Below are positions 11,933-21,214 of a stretch of 26,381 nt of DNA, one piece after another (position 1 is the stretch's first letter; each line of letters opens with the position of its first letter). Origin of the DNA: a virus (lineage: Duplodnaviria > Caudoviricetes). Both the position numbers and the translations under genes were made by a program. Location: the IMG/VR virus record IMGVR_UViG_3300032225_000825, positions 1 through 26,381 of that record. The stretch is one strand, 5' to 3'. The notes below the pieces were generated by a model. That model saw only the letters and a list, made by a program, of their open reading frames with translations. It had not been told where the DNA came from and ran no database searches.

Positions 11933-12246
11933 CGTTTCTTCAGCTCCTTAACCACGTAAGCTTCAAATAACTCGCTAAATCTATCTAGAGGTTCACGGGT
12001 ATTGTTTTTAAAACGGTGGATAGTTCCTTTTCCACTTTGTTCCTGAGTACCAAATTCCAGATCAAAAACAACAGTGGCTGCACCCTCTGCGTGACCTACA
12101 GACATGCCATTTTCCCCGTAACCAACGGTAAGGGCATAAGAAGCTTGCCCCCAACCTTCTTGGGCGGCACTTTCACGCAGCTTTGTTTCCATCTCCCTAG
12201 AGATTTGTTTAGCTGCTTTTTTATATGCGGTAGTAAAAGCCTTCAC
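11929..12246 (-). CDS. Hypothetical protein, possible neck/tail-completion protein
   Basis: 105 aa, with 4-nt stop/start overlaps on both sides. The DLEFGT motif resembles the EFGT motif of HK97-gp10-like proteins. Confidence 0.5.
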   Translation of the reverse strand: MKAFTTAYKKAAKQISREMETKLRESAAQEGWGQASYALTVGYGENGMSVGHAEGAATVVFDLEFGTQEQSGKGTIHRFKNNTREPLDRFSELFEAYVVKELKKR

Positions 12247-12440
12247 TGCTTCCTGCCTGTAAAGGATTGCGGCTTCTCAAAAGAGTTGTTTACGTAACCT
12301 GAGCTAAGCATACCCATCATGACATTGAGAGGGAGGTTGGGCCTGAGACCGTTTGCCCCTTGGGTAAACTCTTTTCGTTCCTCGAATGAAAGATAGTCAT
12401 TAACTTTTTTCCACCAAGGCGTAAAGTCTGGAGAAGACAT
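12243..12440 (-). CDS. Hypothetical protein (65 aa), first gene of the tail operon
   Basis: ATG at 12440 (MSSPDFTPWW) is preceded by AAAGGA. The track start at 12509 falls in the predicted leader. Confidence 0.6.
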   Translation of the reverse strand: MSSPDFTPWWKKVNDYLSFEERKEFTQGANGLRPNLPLNVMMGMLSSGYVNNSFEKPQSFTGRKQ

Positions 12441-12508
12441 CGCAAATATCCTTTTTACAGGCGCAGGTTCTACGTAAACGTAGGTGAGAATCCGCACGGA
12501 GACCCACA
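12441..12508 (-). ncRNA. Candidate structured 5' leader RNA
   Basis: Hairpin GUGGGucUCC-GUGC-GGAuuCUCAC, hairpin CUACG-UUUA-CGUAG, and a downstream CUGCGC complementary to GUGCGG. Confidence 0.4.
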
Positions 12509-12513
12509 CTTCA

Positions 12514-12542
12514 AGGATAGAGGCTTATGGAGCAGTGGGCTG
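12514..12542 (-). promoter_or_regulatory. Putative late promoter CAG-N20-TATCCT
   Basis: Same geometry as the motifs at 18843-18871 and 20150-20178. Heads the tail operon. Confidence 0.55.
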
Positions 12543-12905
12543 GCTAAACTTATTAGACATCCAGTCCTGATTCATTGCTGTCTTATAGGCATGACAATTA
12601 GCACACAAAGTTTGTAGGTTGCTGATGTCGTTGTTTTTTTTATTACCATCAATGTGGTCTACATGAAGTTGGGATGGGTGAAGTGCTTTAAACCCACACT
12701 TTTCACATGCATCTTTTTTGTATTGCCGCCAAGGGGCACTAGCGTTTAAAGTAGCACGTCTATGTGCAATTTTACACCGCCAGTAAATTTCCCCAGAAAC
12801 TTTAAATTTACCCGTAGGAACGATCTTTACTAGCGTCTCGCATACTGAGCAGTAGGCAAGCAAATCTTGCTCATCAATCTCGGTAAGTAAATGGCGTTCT
12901 TTCAT
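12525..12905 (-). CDS. Free-standing HNH endonuclease with zinc-binding Cys pairs
   Basis: CEKCGF...LHVDHIDGNKKNNDISNLQTLCANCH, plus an N-terminal CSVC. Confidence 0.9.
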   Translation of the reverse strand: MKERHLLTEIDEQDLLAYCSVCETLVKIVPTGKFKVSGEIYWRCKIAHRRATLNASAPWRQYKKDACEKCGFKALHPSQLHVDHIDGNKKNNDISNLQTLCANCHAYKTAMNQDWMSNKFSQPTAP

Positions 12906-12911
12906 TTCTGT

Positions 12912-12940
12912 AGCATAGCATTAGGCCCCCTGTCAAACAA
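12912..12940 (-). promoter_or_regulatory. Housekeeping-sigma-type promoter giving a leaderless HNH mRNA
   Basis: TTGTTT-17 nt-TATGCT with extended TGn, then 6 nt to the ATG at 12905. No SD. Confidence 0.55.
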
Positions 12941-12951
12941 GGGGCCTAATG
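12919..12951 (-). terminator. Stem-loop, probable terminator after the basic-protein array
   Basis: Perfect 11-bp inverted repeat CATTAGGCCCC/GGGGCCTAATG, extendable to 15 bp with one G-U pair on the minus strand. Lies 10 nt after the stop at 12962. No clear U-tract. Confidence 0.6.
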
Positions 12952-12961
12952 TTTGTGTTGG

Positions 12962-13105
12962 TTATTTACTTTTAATTGTGGTTTTGCCTTTGGCCACAGC
13001 CTTAGCTTTTTGAGCAGTGGTCTTGCGACCTTTCTGAGAAGTAAGCTTTTTGCCTTCTGCGTTGGTTTCTGAACGCTTGGTCTCTTTACCAAACTTGATT
13101 GCCAT
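12962..13105 (-). CDS. Small Lys-rich protein (47 aa)
   Basis: Not in track. MAIKFGKETKRSETNAEGKKLTSQKGRKTTAQKAKAVAKGKTTIKSK. TAATG overlap with the upstream gene. Confidence 0.75.
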   Translation of the reverse strand: MAIKFGKETKRSETNAEGKKLTSQKGRKTTAQKAKAVAKGKTTIKSK

Positions 13106-13356
13106 TACTTCTTCCCCTTAGCCATGACTTTCTTACGCGCAGCGGCGTCTTTCTTCATGTCTTCCTTCTTGGAGATACCAGGCTTGTCGTGCTTGGCGTC
13201 TTCCTTCTTGAACTTGGCCTTCTGAGCAGGGGTCATGCCACGCATTTCCTTCTTATCCTGGGCCTTGTCTTCTTTTGAATTCAGCCAAGCAGGCTTCTTG
13301 CTGGCTTCTTTACGCTTCTTACAAGCAGCGCACTTACCGCATTTACATGTTGCCAT
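13105..13356 (-). CDS. Small Lys-rich protein with N-terminal CxCxxCxxC (83 aa)
   Basis: MATCKCGKCAACKKRK. TAATG overlaps at both ends, SD AAGGA. Confidence 0.8.
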   Translation of the reverse strand: MATCKCGKCAACKKRKEASKKPAWLNSKEDKAQDKKEMRGMTPAQKAKFKKEDAKHDKPGISKKEDMKKDAAARKKVMAKGKK

Positions 13357-13397
13357 TATTTCTTTTCCTTACCACAGGTGCAATTTCCATTACACAT
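13356..13397 (-). CDS. 13-aa Cys-rich micropeptide
   Basis: Not in track. MCNGNCTCGKEKK*. TAATG overlaps at both ends, and TAAGGT lies upstream of the ATG. Confidence 0.55.
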   Translation of the reverse strand: MCNGNCTCGKEKK

Positions 13398-13555
13398 TAT
13401 TTTACCTTAGTCATTCTTGTCGAAGTGTGCCCTTTTGACACAGCTTTTCCTTTACGCTTTCGCTCCTGAAGGTCCTGTAAACGTTCCATGTTGGAGTTTT
13501 TTCCACGAGTTTTCTTAAACTTATCAAGAGGGCCCTTAGGCTTAGGAGCAGTCAC
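13397..13555 (-). CDS. Small Lys-rich protein (52 aa)
   Basis: Not in track. GTG start in a TAGTG overlap. MTAPKPKGPLDKFKKTRGKNSNMERLQDLQERKRKGKAVSKGHTSTRMTKVK. Confidence 0.7.
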   Translation of the reverse strand: MTAPKPKGPLDKFKKTRGKNSNMERLQDLQERKRKGKAVSKGHTSTRMTKVK

Positions 13556-13731
13556 TATCGTCCCCGTTTTGCAAGGGTCGCCATCTTTTTAACGCCATGC
13601 TTTTTACGACCAACTGCAGCGGCAATAGCCTTGGCTTGCTCAGGACTCTTTCCGCTTTTTTCAACGCTTTTAACTACAGCAGCAAAGCGGCCACCCTGAC
13701 CTAATTTAGCTTTTTTATTTGGCTTTTCCAT
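13555..13731 (-). CDS. Small Lys-rich protein (58 aa)
   Basis: Not in track. MEKPNKKAKLGQGGRFAAVVKSVEKSGKSPEQAKAIAAAVGRKKHGVKKMATLAKRGR. TAATG overlap. Confidence 0.75.
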   Translation of the reverse strand: MEKPNKKAKLGQGGRFAAVVKSVEKSGKSPEQAKAIAAAVGRKKHGVKKMATLAKRGR

Positions 13732-14027
13732 TACTTTTTACCTGCTCTTCGCTTATTCTCTTTGGCCGTATTCTTACCGTGTGCCAGGGGGCGAAGGTTT
13801 GAATCGCGGTCATCTGAGTGCTTATTATTCTTGTGATCCACGTCAGTTCCTTTAGGAAGCTTCCGTCCAGATTTTTGTTCGTAATCTTCTCGAGCTTTGT
13901 TCTTAGATTCAGTTTTCCATCCCGTCGAGGTTTTTACTTTCCAAACGTAGATCTCTCTCCCACCATTTTGAGTTGAGCCTTTATAGGGCCCAAACTTCTT
14001 TCTGGTGCCTATCTTTACCTCAGCCAC
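13731..14027 (-). CDS. Small basic HNH-motif protein (98 aa)
   Basis: Likely GTG start at 14027 (GAGG upstream, 8-nt overlap). Motif DVDHKNNKHSDDRDSNLRPLAHGKN. Confidence 0.7.
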   Translation of the reverse strand: MAEVKIGTRKKFGPYKGSTQNGGREIYVWKVKTSTGWKTESKNKAREDYEQKSGRKLPKGTDVDHKNNKHSDDRDSNLRPLAHGKNTAKENKRRAGKK

Positions 14028-14271
14028 GTCGATGCCTCGCAGTCTTCTTAGCAATCTTTTTGGGCTGGGCAACAAACTGCTTACCAGGCTTGCCTCCATC
14101 TCCCTTAGCCTTTGCACGATTAGTTGCAGCTTTTTCTGCAGGAGTCAGATCTTCCCAAGCTTTTTTAGGAAGATAGCGTTTTTTTCCTTTAGACGGTTTA
14201 CCATCCGAGGTAGTCCACTCTTCCTTAGTCCATTTGTCCAATGAACGCTGAGATTTTGCTTTGGTCGTCAC
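14020..14271 (-). CDS. Small basic protein resembling the C-terminal half of DUF5872-like proteins
   Basis: SQRSLDKWTKEEWTT...RYLPKKAW...GKQFVAQP. GTGA overlap. Confidence 0.7.
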   Translation of the reverse strand: MTTKAKSQRSLDKWTKEEWTTSDGKPSKGKKRYLPKKAWEDLTPAEKAATNRAKAKGDGGKPGKQFVAQPKKIAKKTARHRRG

Positions 14272-14465
14272 TTGTAGCCCCCACCAGCCTTCTTGTATTC
14301 TGCCGCGAGGAGCTGGGCTTTACGGGCCGACCATTCGCCAGGATCTCCGCCTTTGGTTCCAGCTTTGATCTGCTTAAAAAGCCGCTCTCTAAGAGCAGGC
14401 TTGGTGTAATTGCCTGCCTCGTTTACTCGCGACTTTGACTTGGCCGCTGGTTTCTTAGTAGCCAT
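14268..14465 (-). CDS. Small basic protein resembling the N-terminal half of DUF5872-like proteins
   Basis: NYTKPALRERLFKQIKAGTKGGDPGEWSARKAQLLAAEYKKAGGGY. TAATG overlap. Confidence 0.75.
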   Translation of the reverse strand: MATKKPAAKSKSRVNEAGNYTKPALRERLFKQIKAGTKGGDPGEWSARKAQLLAAEYKKAGGGYK

Positions 14466-14680
14466 TACTTAATCCTTGGGTGCTCTCGGTGAAACTTCTT
14501 AGTATCTTTGACGCCTTGCTTAACAGTCTTGGCCCCAGACAGTTTGGTCAGGTTCATGCGTTCTTTTTTTCCTGACTTGCTGTTCTGCTCAACGATAATA
14601 TCGCCTTTGCTACCAGCGCCCTTGTCAACCTTCTTCTTAGTAACAGTGTGTTTTTTGCCACCAGCCGTAATTCGGGCCAT
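14465..14680 (-). CDS. Small Lys-rich protein (71 aa)
   Basis: ATG at 14680 in a TAATG overlap. MARITAGGKKHTVTKKK. Confidence 0.75.
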   Translation of the reverse strand: MARITAGGKKHTVTKKKVDKGAGSKGDIIVEQNSKSGKKERMNLTKLSGAKTVKQGVKDTKKFHREHPRIK

Positions 14681-14970
14681 TACCACTTCACCTTGTTGGC
14701 CCAGTAAGCAGCAGACATCTTGCCTTTAGCAATGTTCTTGGCGTGGCGAGCCTGAAAAGACTCGCGACGCTTGCGGTAGGCCTCAGACTCGCCCTCTTTC
14801 TTGGGGGAGCCTTTTACGCCATGCTGTCCAAAACGAATTAGCTTAACCTGGTCACCCTCTTTAGCAACAACTACGTGAGAGTGCTTGGGGTCGTTAGGGG
14901 TAGCCTTAGGCTTGTTGTAGCCAGACACTCCAGCTCGTGCAAGTCTGGGGTCTTTCTTTTTTTCTGCCAT
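14680..14970 (-). CDS. Small basic phage protein (KLIRFG...RH...AYWA type)
   Basis: 96 aa, SD AAGGA. Motif KLIRFGQ...RRESFQARH...MSAAYWANKVKW. Confidence 0.8.
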   Translation of the reverse strand: MAEKKKDPRLARAGVSGYNKPKATPNDPKHSHVVVAKEGDQVKLIRFGQHGVKGSPKKEGESEAYRKRRESFQARHAKNIAKGKMSAAYWANKVKW

Positions 14971-15005
14971 TATATTTCCTTTGTTCTTTTAGCTTGTTTG
15001 GTAGT

Positions 15006-15221
15006 TTACCATGCGCTCAAAGCAGTTCTTTTCCAGGTGTTCGTTGCAACACAGACGTAGAAAAAACCTGAAGCGTACGCTACCTGACCTGCAACTCCTG
15101 CAGAAGTAGCGGTTGCTGGCGCTGCTACCCAGGGACCCACCTTTGTGTCTAGGTAATCTAGCGCGGTGTTGAGGGTGGTTCCCCAGCTCATTGCATTAAT
15201 GGTTGGTTTAATAAGGGGCAT
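15006..15221 (-). CDS. Small virion fibre/whisker-like protein (71 aa)
   Basis: WGTTLNTALDYLD followed by PATATSAGVAGQVAY...FYVCVATNTWKR, a module typical of phage fibre proteins. Confidence 0.6.
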   Translation of the reverse strand: MPLIKPTINAMSWGTTLNTALDYLDTKVGPWVAAPATATSAGVAGQVAYASGFFYVCVATNTWKRTALSAW

Positions 15222-15223
15222 GT

Positions 15224-15826
15224 TTACTCTCCGTAAGGATCTGCTCCGAAGCCTGCTGCTCCGTAGCCGTATGTTCTGCTCTCCGATTTAGATGGAGAAG
15301 CTTGAGTTTGGAACTGCGGGTCATTGACCAGCTCTTCAGGGTTAACCTGGTTGAAGTCTACCGTAACAACAGCCCAGCGGTATCCAAATGAACCGCGAGG
15401 CAAAACTCGTGTAGGAACGTATACTTCACCACGATAAATAATGCGGTCTTTAATGTGAGTGTTGGGATCTGTGATAAGCCCAGGCAGCATACGCTGAACA
15501 TCGCCTACATTCATAACAAGACGGAGAGTATCTGCAACATAGTAACCGCGTTCGTTCATGACGTTTGTACCGCGAATAACTTGGGCCATAACCACAGGCA
15601 TTTTGAACGGAAGCATCCAGCGCTTACCTTTGCCAGGAACCGAGCTAGAGACGTCGTAAATGTCATCGACAATGTCCGTATAGTTAGCTGTCAAGAAATA
15701 GTCCTGCCAACGGAACCAGTCAACCTCAACACCAACGGTGCCTCCGAGGTCTTCGGCAATTCCCTCATACATAGACTTACTTTCGTAATCCATGTTGAAT
15801 CTGCCCTGAAGCTTAGTTCCGCGCAT
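15224..15826 (-). CDS. Probable neck / head-closure protein (gp14-like)
   Basis: 200 aa with VDDIYD and KDRIIYRGEVY. SD GGGAG. Function inferred from size and from its position upstream of the tail genes. Confidence 0.5.
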   Translation of the reverse strand: MRGTKLQGRFNMDYESKSMYEGIAEDLGGTVGVEVDWFRWQDYFLTANYTDIVDDIYDVSSSVPGKGKRWMLPFKMPVVMAQVIRGTNVMNERGYYVADTLRLVMNVGDVQRMLPGLITDPNTHIKDRIIYRGEVYVPTRVLPRGSFGYRWAVVTVDFNQVNPEELVNDPQFQTQASPSKSESRTYGYGAAGFGADPYGE

Positions 15827-15844
15827 AGTTATCTCCCTAGACTT

Positions 15845-16894
15845 CTATTTTCCCTTATAGAAGACCAGATTGTTTGCCAATCGCTCGTCAGTTGGGTCGA
15901 GTTCAGCCGCTTTAGTTCCCAGCTCCAGTGCTTCTTTAAGGAGCCCTAAGTAGTAGGCCGAAATAGCTGCAAGATCCCAGGGCAATGGGCCCCAAGCAAA
16001 CTCTTCGCAGAGGTAATCTAAGGGCTTGTCTAAAATGTTTAGCGCGCTATTTGCAGCTTCATAGCATTTAGCCCATTCTGATTTCTGATAGTAAAACTGA
16101 GCAAGATCTACCCAGGGCTCGCGCCTTGCTTCATCCTCAAGAGTAGCTGATATAAGCCACTTCTCAGCGTTATCGAGCTCACATTTAGAAAGGTAGCGCA
16201 TAGACGCTGCACGTTCTGGCCGCCACTTTGCTGTAGGAAGATCAAGGTGTCTCCTAAACTCCTTTGCAGCCTCTTCTCGCTGACCATAAAAGTACAGTTC
16301 TCGAGCGTAATAATACGCGTTGCGATCATCATAGGGGTCTTCTTTTACAGATAGAGCTAGTAAAGGAAGGTAGCTTGAGCGCGGTTTAGCCGTATCTGGG
16401 TGGTGGTGAATCTCAAGCCCGCACCAGCCCTGGACCTCCTCGATGCGATCAGCAATGATAACCTCATGTACGGGGTGCTTCCATACGTACCCTTTACGGG
16501 TATGAATTTTATCTCCACCATATTGAAGGCCAGGAGTGCCGTCTTCTTTCCAAGACCAGGTGTATTGGTATCTAGGTCGGGTTATGCCTGATTCAAAAAG
16601 TCTTTCAAGCTCGGGACGCCATCCTTCTTGCAAAGTTTCATCCATATCCAGTGCAACACAATAATCAATGTCCAAAGGAAGGGCAGCAAGAGAAGTGTTA
16701 CGAGCAACATCGAAACGCCAAGGATTAACCCCAATAGAAACCACGTTAATTCCAAGATTTTTTGCTTTCTCAATAGTGTTGTCTGTAGATCCAGTATCAG
16801 CAATCAGCAGATAGTCCGCTTCTTTAGCTGAGTTATACCATGATTCTACAAACTGTTCTTCATTTAGTGCAATAGTGTATACGCCGATTTTCAT
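15845..16894 (-). CDS. Family 2 glycosyltransferase with C-terminal TPR repeats
   Basis: Motifs IALNEE, IADTGSTDNT, FDVARN, DxD motif LDMDE and PVHE. The helical C-terminal half is TPR-like (YYYAREL, WVDLAQFYY, AAELDPTDERLANN). Confidence 0.92.
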   Translation of the reverse strand: MKIGVYTIALNEEQFVESWYNSAKEADYLLIADTGSTDNTIEKAKNLGINVVSIGVNPWRFDVARNTSLAALPLDIDYCVALDMDETLQEGWRPELERLFESGITRPRYQYTWSWKEDGTPGLQYGGDKIHTRKGYVWKHPVHEVIIADRIEEVQGWCGLEIHHHPDTAKPRSSYLPLLALSVKEDPYDDRNAYYYARELYFYGQREEAAKEFRRHLDLPTAKWRPERAASMRYLSKCELDNAEKWLISATLEDEARREPWVDLAQFYYQKSEWAKCYEAANSALNILDKPLDYLCEEFAWGPLPWDLAAISAYYLGLLKEALELGTKAAELDPTDERLANNLVFYKGK

Positions 16895-18330: not shown

Positions 18331-18813
18331 TTACGACCAGGCAATCCAAATATCCCCAGCAACAGGGGACGTTGGAGCTCCATTACTTAAAGAACTAGCG
18401 TACAACTTTGTAAAAGACCCACTGCTATTTACAACTCCGTTAGTAACTGACTTTCCATAAATAACGGGACCAATTGCAATAGGAGCAGCCCCAGTAAAGG
18501 AAGCACCATTAATATTTACAGCAGTATTCAGAGCTTTTGCTGTGTTAGCGACAATGGTATTGCTTGTTGAGTTAATGCCCAAAGAGACATCAGCTGTGCC
18601 GTTGTAGTTGGCAGTTGCAGTAAAGTCAGAGCTAAAAGTAATCGTTCCCGACTTTAAATATGGAAGAGCAGTAAAACTTGCGCTGCCATCTCCAACCTTA
18701 AGGACTTTGTTGGTAGTGTCTAGCCCCAACTCACCAACGTCAAGAACTGCGTCATTTAACGCCCAAGAACCAGTTCCAGTAGCTGGTCCTCTTCTAACTT
18801 GAATTTTAGGCAT
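18331..18813 (-). CDS. Short fibre protein with Mtd/hyaluronidase-type N-terminal domain
   Basis: IQVRRG...GELGLDTTNKVLKVGDG, ALNTAVNING and a C-terminal PTSPVAGDIWI. Confidence 0.75.
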   Translation of the reverse strand: MPKIQVRRGPATGTGSWALNDAVLDVGELGLDTTNKVLKVGDGSASFTALPYLKSGTITFSSDFTATANYNGTADVSLGINSTSNTIVANTAKALNTAVNINGASFTGAAPIAIGPVIYGKSVTNGVVNSSGSFTKLYASSLSNGAPTSPVAGDIWIAWS

Positions 18814-18871: not shown

Positions 18872-18873
18872 CC

Positions 18874-18910
18874 AGAAAACCCCCCACAGTAATCTGCGGG
18901 GGGCTTCCTG
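18874..18910 (-). terminator. Intrinsic terminator after the endolysin
   Basis: Minus strand CCCCCCGCAG-ATTA-CTGTGGGGGG followed by TTTTCT. Confidence 0.85.
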
Positions 18911-18919
18911 TAATTAGGC

Positions 18920-20113
18920 TTACTTCTTGGCGTTTGCGATAGCAAGAGTCGTAAAGGGAACCGCAAGGTTTCCTACGACCGCGCTGGTTACAATGAGCCA
19001 GATCGGAGCTTGAGTTCCGCTAGCCATAACGGCAACGGAGATGTTGCTGACAATCAATGCAGCAAGGCCGTAGAGAGCGTATGCAATCTTGCGGTTCTTT
19101 GCTTTAGGAATCAAGATTCCAAGTGCATCATTAGCAGCAGTGTTAGCGTCCTGGGGAAGGGGCTGAATTTCGGGCATTACAGGATCCTTTACAGGTTCAG
19201 TGGGTTTTACAGGAACAATAGGCAGCGGTGGCTCAGTGGGCTTTACAGGCACAACAGGCTTTGCAGGAACAACGGGAGTAGGAGCATTAATAGGAGCGGG
19301 TTTTGGAACACCTTGGCGAAGAGCAGCAGTAGTCTTAGGACCAACAACTCCATCTACCTCCAAGCCGTGCTTAGACTGGAAGTCCTTAATTGCTGCAAGC
19401 GTCTTAGGACCAACAATTCCATCGACTTCAAGACCGTATCCAAAGGCATTGAGAAGTTGTTGAATTTCAGCCGAACCAGCAACGTCTCCTCCAGAGTTAT
19501 TGCCTGCCTGAAGAGCGCCCATAGTCTTAGGACCAACAATTCCATCGACTTCAAGCCCGTGCTTACTCTGGAAATCTTTAATTGCAGCCAACGTTTTAGG
19601 GCCAACAATTCCGTCAACGTCAAGCCCATAACCAAAGTTGTTAAGAAGCTTTTGAATCTCAGAGCCTTGAGCAGCTGAAGACCCTCCTCCGCCAAGAGCA
19701 ACATGCCACGACTCTGACGGAACTGTAAAGGAAAGTCCCAGGGACTCAGCAATGCTGCGAACAACAGAGTTGTTGCGTCCAGGGTTAATATCGGCAGCCA
19801 TACCCCAACCATGTGAAGAGGTTCCAGGAGTACCTGCTGACGGAGTTTCGCCCCTGTGCATGCGACCAATTTGGAACCACTGGTTTGACCCTCCAGTAGA
19901 GGTGTCGCTCTCAGAAGTTACAAACTGATCACTGGGAATACCGAGAGGACGGTAGCCCTCGTTAATGTGGATGTCTACGCCTTGCGCAGCAGCTTGATTA
20001 ATAAGGTTAACCATTACCTGGAACATGGAGGGCTCAAAGTATTGCCCTTGAAGCTCCTTCATTGCGGATAGCGGGATCTCGCCATTTGCGAAACCGCCCC
20101 ATGCGTTTACCAT
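18920..20113 (-). CDS. Endolysin: M15-type Zn peptidase, two peptidoglycan-binding domains, Pro-rich linker, C-terminal 2-TM holin-like domain
   Basis: EGYR, SSHGWGMAAD (SxHx6D) and ESWH (ExxH). Four DG(I/V)VGPKT motifs, PVKP repeats, and two hydrophobic helices at the C-terminus. SD AAGGAG. Confidence 0.9.
   Translation of the reverse strand: MVNAWGGFANGEIPLSAMKELQGQYFEPSMFQVMVNLINQAAAQGVDIHINEGYRPLGIPSDQFVTSESDTSTGGSNQWFQIGRMHRGETPSAGTPGTSSHGWGMAADINPGRNNSVVRSIAESLGLSFTVPSESWHVALGGGGSSAAQGSEIQKLLNNFGYGLDVDGIVGPKTLAAIKDFQSKHGLEVDGIVGPKTMGALQAGNNSGGDVAGSAEIQQLLNAFGYGLEVDGIVGPKTLAAIKDFQSKHGLEVDGVVGPKTTAALRQGVPKPAPINAPTPVVPAKPVVPVKPTEPPLPIVPVKPTEPVKDPVMPEIQPLPQDANTAANDALGILIPKAKNRKIAYALYGLAALIVSNISVAVMASGTQAPIWLIVTSAVVGNLAVPFTTLAIANAKK
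19331..19660 (-). repeat. Tandem duplication encoding two peptidoglycan-binding domains
   Basis: Near-identical repeats EIQxLLNxFGYGLxVDGIVGPKTLAAIKDFQSKHGLEVDGxVGPKT. The DNA string gtcttaggaccaacaa recurs near 19332, 19401 and 19524. Confidence 0.85.
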
Positions 20114-20149
20114 ATTTCTCCTTAAAGATTGTTGATGCCCTCTTATAAA

Positions 20150-20178
20150 AGTATAGCTTCCACAAAGAAGAGATGCTG
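20150..20178 (-). promoter_or_regulatory. Putative late promoter CAG-N20-TATACT
   Basis: Intergenic, upstream of the endolysin, with the same spacing as the other two copies. Confidence 0.6.
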
Positions 20179-20215
20179 AGTGAAGCCCGCCATTAACTGA
20201 GTGTTTGGTTAAAAA

Positions 20216-21214
20216 CTAGATGTTGTTATAGCCAAACACTGAAATAGTTCCGCTCATATAATTGCTGTAAAGGGTTGTATTAAATAAAATCAATCCATCA
20301 GCAGATGCTGTCCCCGTAAAAACCCCTCCCCAGCGCCCTGTGTTCCCCTCAAAGCTAATTGTCTCATCTTGAAACGTAGTTTCTACCTGCTCAAAAGGAT
20401 ATTGAAACTCAAAAATATTTCTTTTAGGAAGATTTAGGGTATTCCATGCCCAGCTCGTCGCGCTATCGGTTACTGCTGAATCCTCTATATTTCCAGTTGA
20501 TTTTAGTATTCGGTAGTAGGTGCTTTTATACGCATTGTTCGCGGTAATTTGGTTGGATACTGCATTGGGGTAAGTAAAGCTACTTGGAGTGCTGCTGTTT
20601 ACTAGCCCAATACCTACGGATGTAGAGCTGCTAGTAAAGTCAAGAAGTACTCGATAGTGGCTATATGCCGACGTAAAAAGGCCCCCAATGTTTACGTAGT
20701 AACAGGCAGCAAATTGAACTTTACTAGTTGTAGGAGTGCTTGTAATCCAAGTAACTGTGTCTCCAACTGAGGGGAAAGTAGTCACTCTGGAAAGTCGTGT
20801 AGGGATAATAGGAACTAGCCCCGCACCAGTGGTCGAGCCTGTACCTCCTTTGGACTCAGGAAGGTTTCCCGTGATGGTTGACCCACCGAGATCGTGAGTA
20901 TGTCCAAAGCCTGCGGTACCAGACAAAGCCGTGTCAAGACCAGTTACTTGAGCAGTAGTAATGGTAATCGGGTCAGTACCAGAGGCTCCGTGAGTAGACG
21001 CGTGGGCCGTAGGAACTCGAGCATTAGTAAGGCGGGAGTCAGAGGGCAGCACTGTTGCATACTTTAGAGTATTCCAAGCAGTGCTTCCATCACCAATCTT
21101 AATGTAATTGGTGTCAGTCTCATACCCGATCTCACCAGAAGAAAGAGTGGGGTTAACGGAGGACCAGTTACTGGCTGTGTCTCTGCGAAGTTGTATTCGT
21201 GTTTTTCTTGGCAT
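20216..21214 (-). CDS. Fibre protein with Mtd/hyaluronidase-type N-terminal domain
   Basis: RIQLRRDTASNW...GEIGYETDTNYIKIGDG, PTAHASTH, HTH and LPESKGGTG fibre motifs, and a beta-rich C-terminus. Confidence 0.8.
   Translation of the reverse strand: MPRKTRIQLRRDTASNWSSVNPTLSSGEIGYETDTNYIKIGDGSTAWNTLKYATVLPSDSRLTNARVPTAHASTHGASGTDPITITTAQVTGLDTALSGTAGFGHTHDLGGSTITGNLPESKGGTGSTTGAGLVPIIPTRLSRVTTFPSVGDTVTWITSTPTTSKVQFAACYYVNIGGLFTSAYSHYRVLLDFTSSSTSVGIGLVNSSTPSSFTYPNAVSNQITANNAYKSTYYRILKSTGNIEDSAVTDSATSWAWNTLNLPKRNIFEFQYPFEQVETTFQDETISFEGNTGRWGGVFTGTASADGLILFNTTLYSNYMSGTISVFGYNNI

Follow-up and report, generated by a model that had tools for sequence, protein, structure and literature searches.

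An endolysin gene fused to a holin-like membrane tail carries a conserved in-frame internal start and may encode two lysis proteins in phages

An endolysin gene found in a 26,381-base virus record (IMGVR_UViG_3300032225_000825; hereafter the window) ends in a two-helix membrane tail, and an internal ribosome-binding site (RBS) followed by an in-frame start codon is conserved just before this tail. The best explanation as a whole, to which we assign a probability of roughly 0.64, is that the gene makes both a membrane-tethered endolysin and a free holin-type subunit acting in lysis. The preliminary description of this DNA proposed that one gene yields two products, and comparative codon evidence strongly supports that part of the proposal.

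The anatomy described earlier, that is, an M15 peptidase, two peptidoglycan (PG)-binding domains, a Pro/Lys linker, and two hydrophobic helices within 397 aa, was confirmed (Table 1). Pfam recognizes PG_binding_1 twice (E 7e-37) and VanY at E 2.4e-5 with 24.6 bits, just under the cut-off of 25. The peptidase domain possesses both SxHxxGxAxD (aa 99) and ExWH (aa 134), which we take to be the M15 zinc-site pattern. By hydropathy, there is no signal or SAR-like hydrophobic stretch at the N-terminus of the endolysin, and the sole hydrophobic windows in the whole protein start at aa 346 and 374. Both hydropathy and AlphaFold2 predict two transmembrane (TM) helices in the tail, aa 313-397; the AlphaFold2 model, of modest confidence (pLDDT 69), has two long helices at tail residues 26-53 and 59-83. 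Basic residues are present at both ends of the hairpin and absent from its loop, so that an N-in/C-in topology is predicted by the positive-inside rule. In the 85-aa tail, 30 residues with 7 charges precede helix 1, and there is a single Met. The ATG at 19177 is indeed in frame, corresponds to residue 313, and yields 85 aa beginning with MPEIQPLPQ. The Shine-Dalgarno (SD) sequence AAAGGA at 19190-19185 precedes it with a 7-nt spacer, as had been noticed. The statement that the genes starting at 12440, 14970, and 18813 use the same type of SD holds only in part: GAAGGA precedes the gene at 18813, and the start at 12440 turned out to be an ATG inside an ORF listed from 12509.

Table 1. Features of the endolysin-membrane fusion gene and its 3′ flank in the window
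Feature	Position	Strand	Remarks
Endolysin-membrane fusion gene, 397 aa	18920..20113	-	Own RBS TAAGGAG before ATG 20113
M15/VanY-like zinc peptidase domain, aa 1-141	19691..20113	-	Pfam VanY; motifs at aa 99, 134
First PG_binding_1 domain, about aa 150-204	19502..19666	-	Pfam
Second PG_binding_1 domain, about aa 213-267	19313..19477	-	Pfam
Pro/Lys/Val-rich linker, aa 268-312, 36% Pro	19178..19312	-	
Internal Shine-Dalgarno AAAGGA	19185..19190	-	Long frame reads it Val-Lys-Asp
In-frame ORF of 85 aa within the fusion gene, predicted to yield a two-helix membrane protein as second product	18920..19177	-	
Predicted TM helix 1, aa 343-365, KAKNRK before it	19019..19087	-	Hydropathy, structure model
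Predicted TM helix 2, aa 371-394, AKK after it	18932..19003	-	Hydropathy, structure model
Terminator-like 17-bp G+C hairpin	18873..18910	-	Directly past the stop codon of the fusion gene

The sheath, tube, baseplate, and tail-fibre genes of the window are on the minus strand, which makes the phage myovirus-like. Since its 92 kb relatives are rated 85-96% complete, the window probably misses most of its genome. The host would be an actinobacterium, likely one of the Microbacteriaceae. Among cultured phages, the endolysin is matched best by those of Curtobacterium and Microbacterium; the latter account for 201 of the 309 records matched, a share that also reflects sampling. A WhiB gene carried by the relative G001 is evidence for an actinobacterial host. 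The membrane proteins encoded after the endolysins of Curtobacterium/Microbacterium phages were considered and found not to be homologous to the tail. Two Mtd_N tail-fibre-type genes bracket the fusion gene, and no other real minus-strand gene shorter than 420 aa in this 26-kb fragment has a hydrophobic window, in agreement with the earlier remark that no separate holin flanks the endolysin. Further hydropathy matches on the minus strand proved to be off-frame ORFs nested in long genes. Between the tail-fibre and sheath genes, small ORFs, two HNH-type genes, and a glycosyltransferase (phrog_13126) are inserted (window 12243-16894).

Upstream of the endolysin, an AT-rich gap (window 20113-20216) has GCTATACT on the minus strand and is a possible phage promoter. 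The promoter/terminator scan gave nothing above chance, and the sigma-70 scan made no call at this gap. Contigs from two other runs match the gap and then diverge where the endolysin gene begins, which suggests that the endolysin slot is exchanged. The hairpin past the stop codon does not meet the rule of the terminator scan; comparable hairpins were seen by eye, without a shuffle control, in 17 of 24 fused loci. TATACT/TAAAAT-like words are also present 3′ of the hairpin in several relatives.

The fusion is shared by a family of phage proteins. A search with the tail found 57 fusion proteins of 260-428 aa, the protein of the window included, among 176 candidates. Their catalytic domain is M23 in 48 and VanY in 6, and 3 have no listed catalytic domain. 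This domain is swapped among the fusions, while the tail remains 59-95% identical. DNA searches gave 57 loci, which, after addition of the window and removal of one non-homologue (L057), correspond to 26 distinct close loci. All 26 are fused or cut by a contig end. Sixteen stand-alone gene calls of 86-106 aa with sequences very close to the tail, known as proteins only, were therefore rejected as split genes. L114 and L141, flagged as fusions by frame length, were reassigned as stand-alone because no lysin is seen in the upstream frame. No short relatives of P0058 and no relatives in bacterial genome contigs were found, and cultured phages searched by tblastn with the tail and with P0119 yielded no match. 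Since split homologues exist, as described below, a stop codon lost through an assembly or gene-calling artefact has to be considered. However, the fusion is common to 56 other clusters and to every distinct close locus that is not cut by a contig end, and a contig, whose run may be the source, bridges the joint without differences. The independent fused loci refute the artefact, and its probability is negligible.

The internal start is conserved together with its SD. Among the 25 distinct loci having upstream DNA, from which the L018 group was dropped as lacking it, 24 possess AAGGA, a spacer of 7 nt (17 loci) or 10 nt (7 loci), and ATG (18) or GTG (6). The other one, L050, has at best AAAGAG before GTG. 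The Lys of the motif is written AAG in 24 of 24 cases; elsewhere, AAG is used for 241 of 440 Lys overall and for 5 of 22 before Asp/Glu. Similarly, all 6 Val residues at the start position are encoded by GTG, a codon used for 55 of 643 Val elsewhere. The pattern of an SD with an in-frame start was found at none of the 7993 other codon positions of these genes. The 24 loci are not independent and form 16 clusters at 80% identity. Four-fold sites are only 37% identical among these clusters (958/2583), so that inheritance alone does not preserve the SD. Invariant residues of the tail are written with mixed codons. On the tree, ATG and GTG interchanged 3-4 times, at least twice on supported branches. 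At the protein level, a trace of the site, K[ED]x2-3[MV], is found in 53 of the 57 fusion proteins, and several distant fusions show no clear motif. The distant fusions L100 and L104 retain AAAGGA with GTG; in L104, AAAGGA is in another codon register, read as Glu-Arg, and takes the only AGG among 15 Arg codons. In the window gene, the SD shows the best anti-SD pairing among 10 internal in-frame starts, with a moderate strength of -5.5 kcal/mol, and the internal site ranks first among internal starts in 16 of 24 loci. mRNA structure at the internal start is low in all 24 loci, to which little weight is given because the A/C-rich linker could cause it. From this codon evidence, the internal start is judged to be under selection at the nucleotide level, and the start at 19177 is very probably used.

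These observations also bear on the idea that the full-length protein alone matters. The tail would then serve as a membrane anchor or self-export module, as in the endolysins M4Lys and Enc34 ORF39, and the SD and start would be left over from a once separate gene. Split cassettes (L093, L094, and that of phage LuckyBarnes) already hold an SD in the last codons of the lysin gene, so a fusion inherits it for free. Trees require 3-4 changes between the fused and the separate state, but a single clade, that is, one fusion origin, is not rejected (AU p = 0.21), and the motif is absent from 1 of 25 loci and from 4 of 57 proteins. M4Lys lyses without a holin through its TM domain (TMD) (PMC7143992). 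A leftover site is nevertheless hard to reconcile with an SD codon fixed among neighbouring synonymous sites that are near saturation. Selection at the nucleotide level is also indicated by the alternation of Met with Val(GTG), by the occurrence of two spacer lengths, and by the shifted register in L104, and no SD with a start was found at the domain boundary of Enc34 ORF39. We consider this idea improbable.

The fusion may also be a precursor: cleavage within the proline-rich linker would free the head as an ordinary soluble endolysin, and the internal start would only increase the amount of membrane protein. The linker is long, of low complexity, and poorly conserved, which would suit cleavage, but no conserved cleavage motif is evident in the 57 linkers and proline-rich linkers usually resist proteases. 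Cleavage has been raised for the TpeE-type fusion (PMC9527704); in the present family, we regard such processing as very unlikely.

The tail can be assigned to a large 2-TM family without a name, the members of which are fused to M15, M23, or CHAP lysins or are free-standing. A HMMER search of 1.84 billion representatives gave 150 matches, 144 of them new. Among the new ones, 119 are no longer than 200 aa, 23 have 200-500 aa, and 2 are repeat proteins. The 23 carry M23 (8), CHAP (3), VanY (1), only wall-binding domains (LysM/PG-binding; 4), or no Pfam domain (7); the domain scan omits the two repeat proteins of more than 500 aa and one 48-aa fragment. Twenty loci were obtained, and 9 distinct new close loci remained after setting aside 9 of the clade already analysed and 2 duplicates. 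Split versions of the gene do exist, as 7 of these 9 loci are split and 2 are fused. In the split loci, the start of the 2-TM gene is located at -8 to +7 nt relative to the stop codon of a gene of lysin type (M23, CHAP, amidase, VanY-like, or LysM). For example, the lysin of L101 is 56% identical to aa 1-142 of the window protein. In 33 more distant loci (24 distinct), the members stand alone, and a different small membrane gene often comes before them. The stand-alone member of L113 sits after a gene that is itself Phage_holin_2, which means that the 2-TM family need not be the pore-former.

A link to named holins is given by Brevibacterium phage LuckyBarnes. A profile of 85 stand-alone members scores the tail of the window at 84.1 bits and the annotated holin of LuckyBarnes at 61.9 bits, with shuffled sequences at most 2.4. 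The protein through which LuckyBarnes was initially picked up is itself part of this profile; with the profile of the close family alone, the score is 12.1 bits. In LuckyBarnes, the 2-TM gene is in the reading frame of lysin A, starts 3 nt past its stop, and has its SD within the last lysin codons, an arrangement from which fusion is easily reached. No other gene is annotated on this strand after lysin A. The best stand-alone match by Foldseek is a 107-aa 'Holin' (43% identical, E 4.6e-5). A weaker kinship was seen with Gordonia/Rhodococcus phage holins, matched at 90% probability in a profile-profile comparison, and in the ESM Atlas, a cluster without a name (0.94) and one called 'Holin' (0.92-0.93) came up as leads only. 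The annotated holins of LuckyBarnes, of Gordonia phage GMA6/cluster DJ, and of Rhodococcus phage ReqiPepy6 are distant sequence kin of the tail, and each is encoded right after a lysin gene. Unlike the tail in the window, they are separate genes, and their function is known by annotation only.

The tail, aa 313-397, matched no holin family of Pfam or PHROG at significance, that is, nothing at E 0.01, and the holin phrog_29195 appeared only at E 0.017. Only 8 of 114 stand-alone members match PHROG holins (E 8e-5 to 9e-4), and Phage_holin_3_6 was seen under its cut-off in 1 of 141 members. Every 'holin' name matched is a database annotation. The preliminary description had regarded the short product as a stand-alone holin. 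Its role as a lysis membrane protein is supported by the split homologues and by LuckyBarnes, but it may be neither self-sufficient as a holin nor the only one. The short product may be a partner of the LysF1a type rather than the sole pore-former, since several relatives encode a separate 1-TM holin-like protein and no curated holin family was matched.

In F1 mycobacteriophages, LysF1a/LysF1b form a system in which a 2-TM protein of about 80-88 aa depends on a partner with one TM helix, the gene of which may be distant in the genome (PMC13056207), and the same two-protein model was given for LysA2a/LysA2b of D29 (bioRxiv 10.64898/2026.08.27.747656). Like LysF1a, the tail in the window is of this length and has a charged N-terminus, and two TM helices with N-in/C-in topology are predicted for it; the likeness is one of anatomy. 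LysF1a differs in having a shorter N-terminus of 13-16 aa and in being a separate gene accompanied by a soluble Lysin A (PMC13056207). The split locus L110 (amidase, 2-TM member, and DUF2746, the last above its cut-off) resembles the LysF1a/LysF1b layout, whereas PF10874 matched nothing in five long fused records, their 1-TM proteins included. The 1-TM proteins of the fused phages match the DUF2746 protein of L110 weakly (14 bits). A separate 1-TM holin-like gene is present in 3 of these 5 records, at a distance of 5-9 kb; of the other two, G003 is 45% complete and G004 has a separate 2-TM protein (see below). None was seen in the window fragment. Counted by fused locus group, a separate 1-TM protein is found in 6 of 26. 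Examples are G001:C1:70148-70534, G002:C1:34095-34436, G005:C1:52649-52951, and L142:2664-2978. The C-terminus of these proteins is helical and charged; they possess an N[GS]G[ST][ST][IL]KD-type motif, belong to no Pfam family, and are LysF1b-like in anatomy. The same NGGS/NSGS-[ST]-[IL]-KD 1-TM protein is also encoded by Glutamicibacter phage BIM BV-113.

The short form could, on the other hand, be an inhibitor or timer (antiholin-like or a decoy), with the lesion made by the separate 1-TM protein or by the fusion itself. The charged 30-residue segment before helix 1 is consistent with such a role, as it was argued that an N-terminus of this kind keeps TMD1 embedded, and LysF1a is inactive without LysF1b (PMC13056207). 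The 1-TM proteins in the 6 locus groups and the recognized holin adjoining the stand-alone member in L113 would also fit. However, LysF1a is not a pure antiholin, and point mutation can make it lysis-competent (PMC13056207); the LuckyBarnes cassette, where no same-strand gene other than the member is annotated after lysin A, points the same way. An inhibitory role thus seems rather unlikely.

Further membrane and lysin-like genes were noticed in the relatives. A C-terminal-TM gene follows the fusion directly in L031/L035, as it does in several split cassettes. G004:C1:3786-4028 encodes a separate 80-aa 2-TM protein that matches phrog_26427, labelled nuclease, at E 7e-25, and phrog_443 holin weakly, at E 2e-4; the nuclease label looks doubtful. 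Homologous membrane proteins of 88-92 aa with no family match are encoded far from the endolysin at G001:C1:36206-36484 and G004:C1:45799-46065. A 4-TM DUF2637-like protein recurs at G001:C1:80983-81606, G002:C1:14779-15441, and L076:16376-17119. Near the fused endolysin, another M23-like gene is present at G001:C1:81632-82384 and G002:C1:42392-43006, the product of which, as judged by eye from the translation, has a hydrophobic stretch at its N-terminus; in G002, it directly precedes the fusion gene.

The elements of this arrangement have counterparts in other phages. The endolysins CTP1L, TP712, and phi2638A reportedly have an in-frame internal start and appear as two polypeptides. In Staphylococcus phage 187, a holin-like gene is said to be located inside the endolysin gene but out of frame, hence no fusion protein is formed. 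Two-polypeptide (iTSS) endolysins use an in-frame internal start with its own RBS and a shared stop codon (Pinto et al., 2022, PMC9430671), and the window gene is similar as far as sequence and conservation tell. In those enzymes, the short product is the C-terminal, mostly wall-binding part (PMC9430671), whereas both PG-binding domains of the window protein are upstream of the internal start and its short product would be a hydrophobic membrane hairpin. The word 'transmembrane' is absent from the main text of PMC9430671.

An N-terminal catalytic domain with a C-terminal TMD, as in the window, is found in Enc34 ORF39, BSPM4 M4Lys, and Siskin (PMC8943055, PMC6498227, PMC7143992). The TMD of Enc34 and Siskin also consists of two helices, and the route of the enzyme to the wall is unexplained there too. 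These phages have Gram-negative hosts, a PHA02564 catalytic domain, and separate holin and spanin genes beside the endolysin. The window family differs from Enc34/M4Lys in its M15 or M23 domain and tail-fibre-type neighbours, and its tail also exists as a free gene. A natural translational fusion of a TpeE-family holin to an endolysin is known from Clostridium sporogenes, for which anchoring or cleavage was proposed (Brueser and Mehner-Breitfeld, 2022, PMC9527704). In that fusion, reported from six isolates, the holin comes first with one TM and an amphipathic helix, and no free holin is said to be made, whereas the window has a C-terminal two-helix module. Finally, class II pinholins of the S21 type resemble the tail in having two TMDs and, by prediction for the tail, N-in/C-in topology. 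They have a very short N-terminus, a dual start, and a SAR endolysin as partner (PMC13056207); the tail has 30 residues and a single Met there, and the endolysin is not SAR-like.

How the products of such a gene could act may be outlined as follows. Translation would begin both at ATG 20113, giving the 397-aa fusion, and at the conserved site at 19177, giving the 85-aa membrane protein. The latter, for which an N-in/C-in topology is predicted, likely accumulates in the membrane as a holin-type component and contributes to its opening at lysis; in this, it probably cooperates with a 1-TM protein from a separate gene, much as LysF1a and LysF1b act together. As the fusion lacks an export signal, its catalytic and wall-binding head would remain cytoplasmic, with the same hairpin as its tether. 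Having this hairpin in common, the two forms would assemble with each other, which would place the enzyme in advance where the lesion is to form. Once lysis is triggered, the proline-rich linker of 45 residues would let the head extend to the wall.

Internal starts of endolysins (PMC9430671), endolysins with a C-terminal TMD (PMC8943055, PMC6498227, PMC7143992), and an N-terminal holin-endolysin fusion (PMC9527704) are each known singly. In the main texts of the open literature, an endolysin with a nested in-frame membrane lysis gene was not found; the supplement of PMC9430671 could list cases. No such fusion is mentioned in the parts of two papers on actinophage cassettes (PMC9671378; bioRxiv 10.1101/2025.05.26.655371) that were consulted.

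If both products are made, both halves of the cell-bursting machinery share one reading frame. It is possible, and we propose it tentatively, that this is a distinct lysis strategy widespread in uncultured actinobacterial phages: an endolysin covalently joined to a holin subunit, free subunits from the same frame, two ribosome-binding sites setting the enzyme-to-holin ratio, and the enzyme delivered via its own lesion. How signal-less endolysins gain access to the wall in Gram-positive/actinobacterial hosts and what small 2-TM cassette proteins do are open questions (PMC13056207, PMC8943055). As the same catalytic domain occurs in nature in fused and in split form, silent point mutations in this gene family would allow both to be tested. 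The comparison also defines an unnamed holin-like family of more than 100 clusters at 50% identity, and it indicates that annotation overlooks a likely lysis gene hidden in frame within dozens of phage endolysins.
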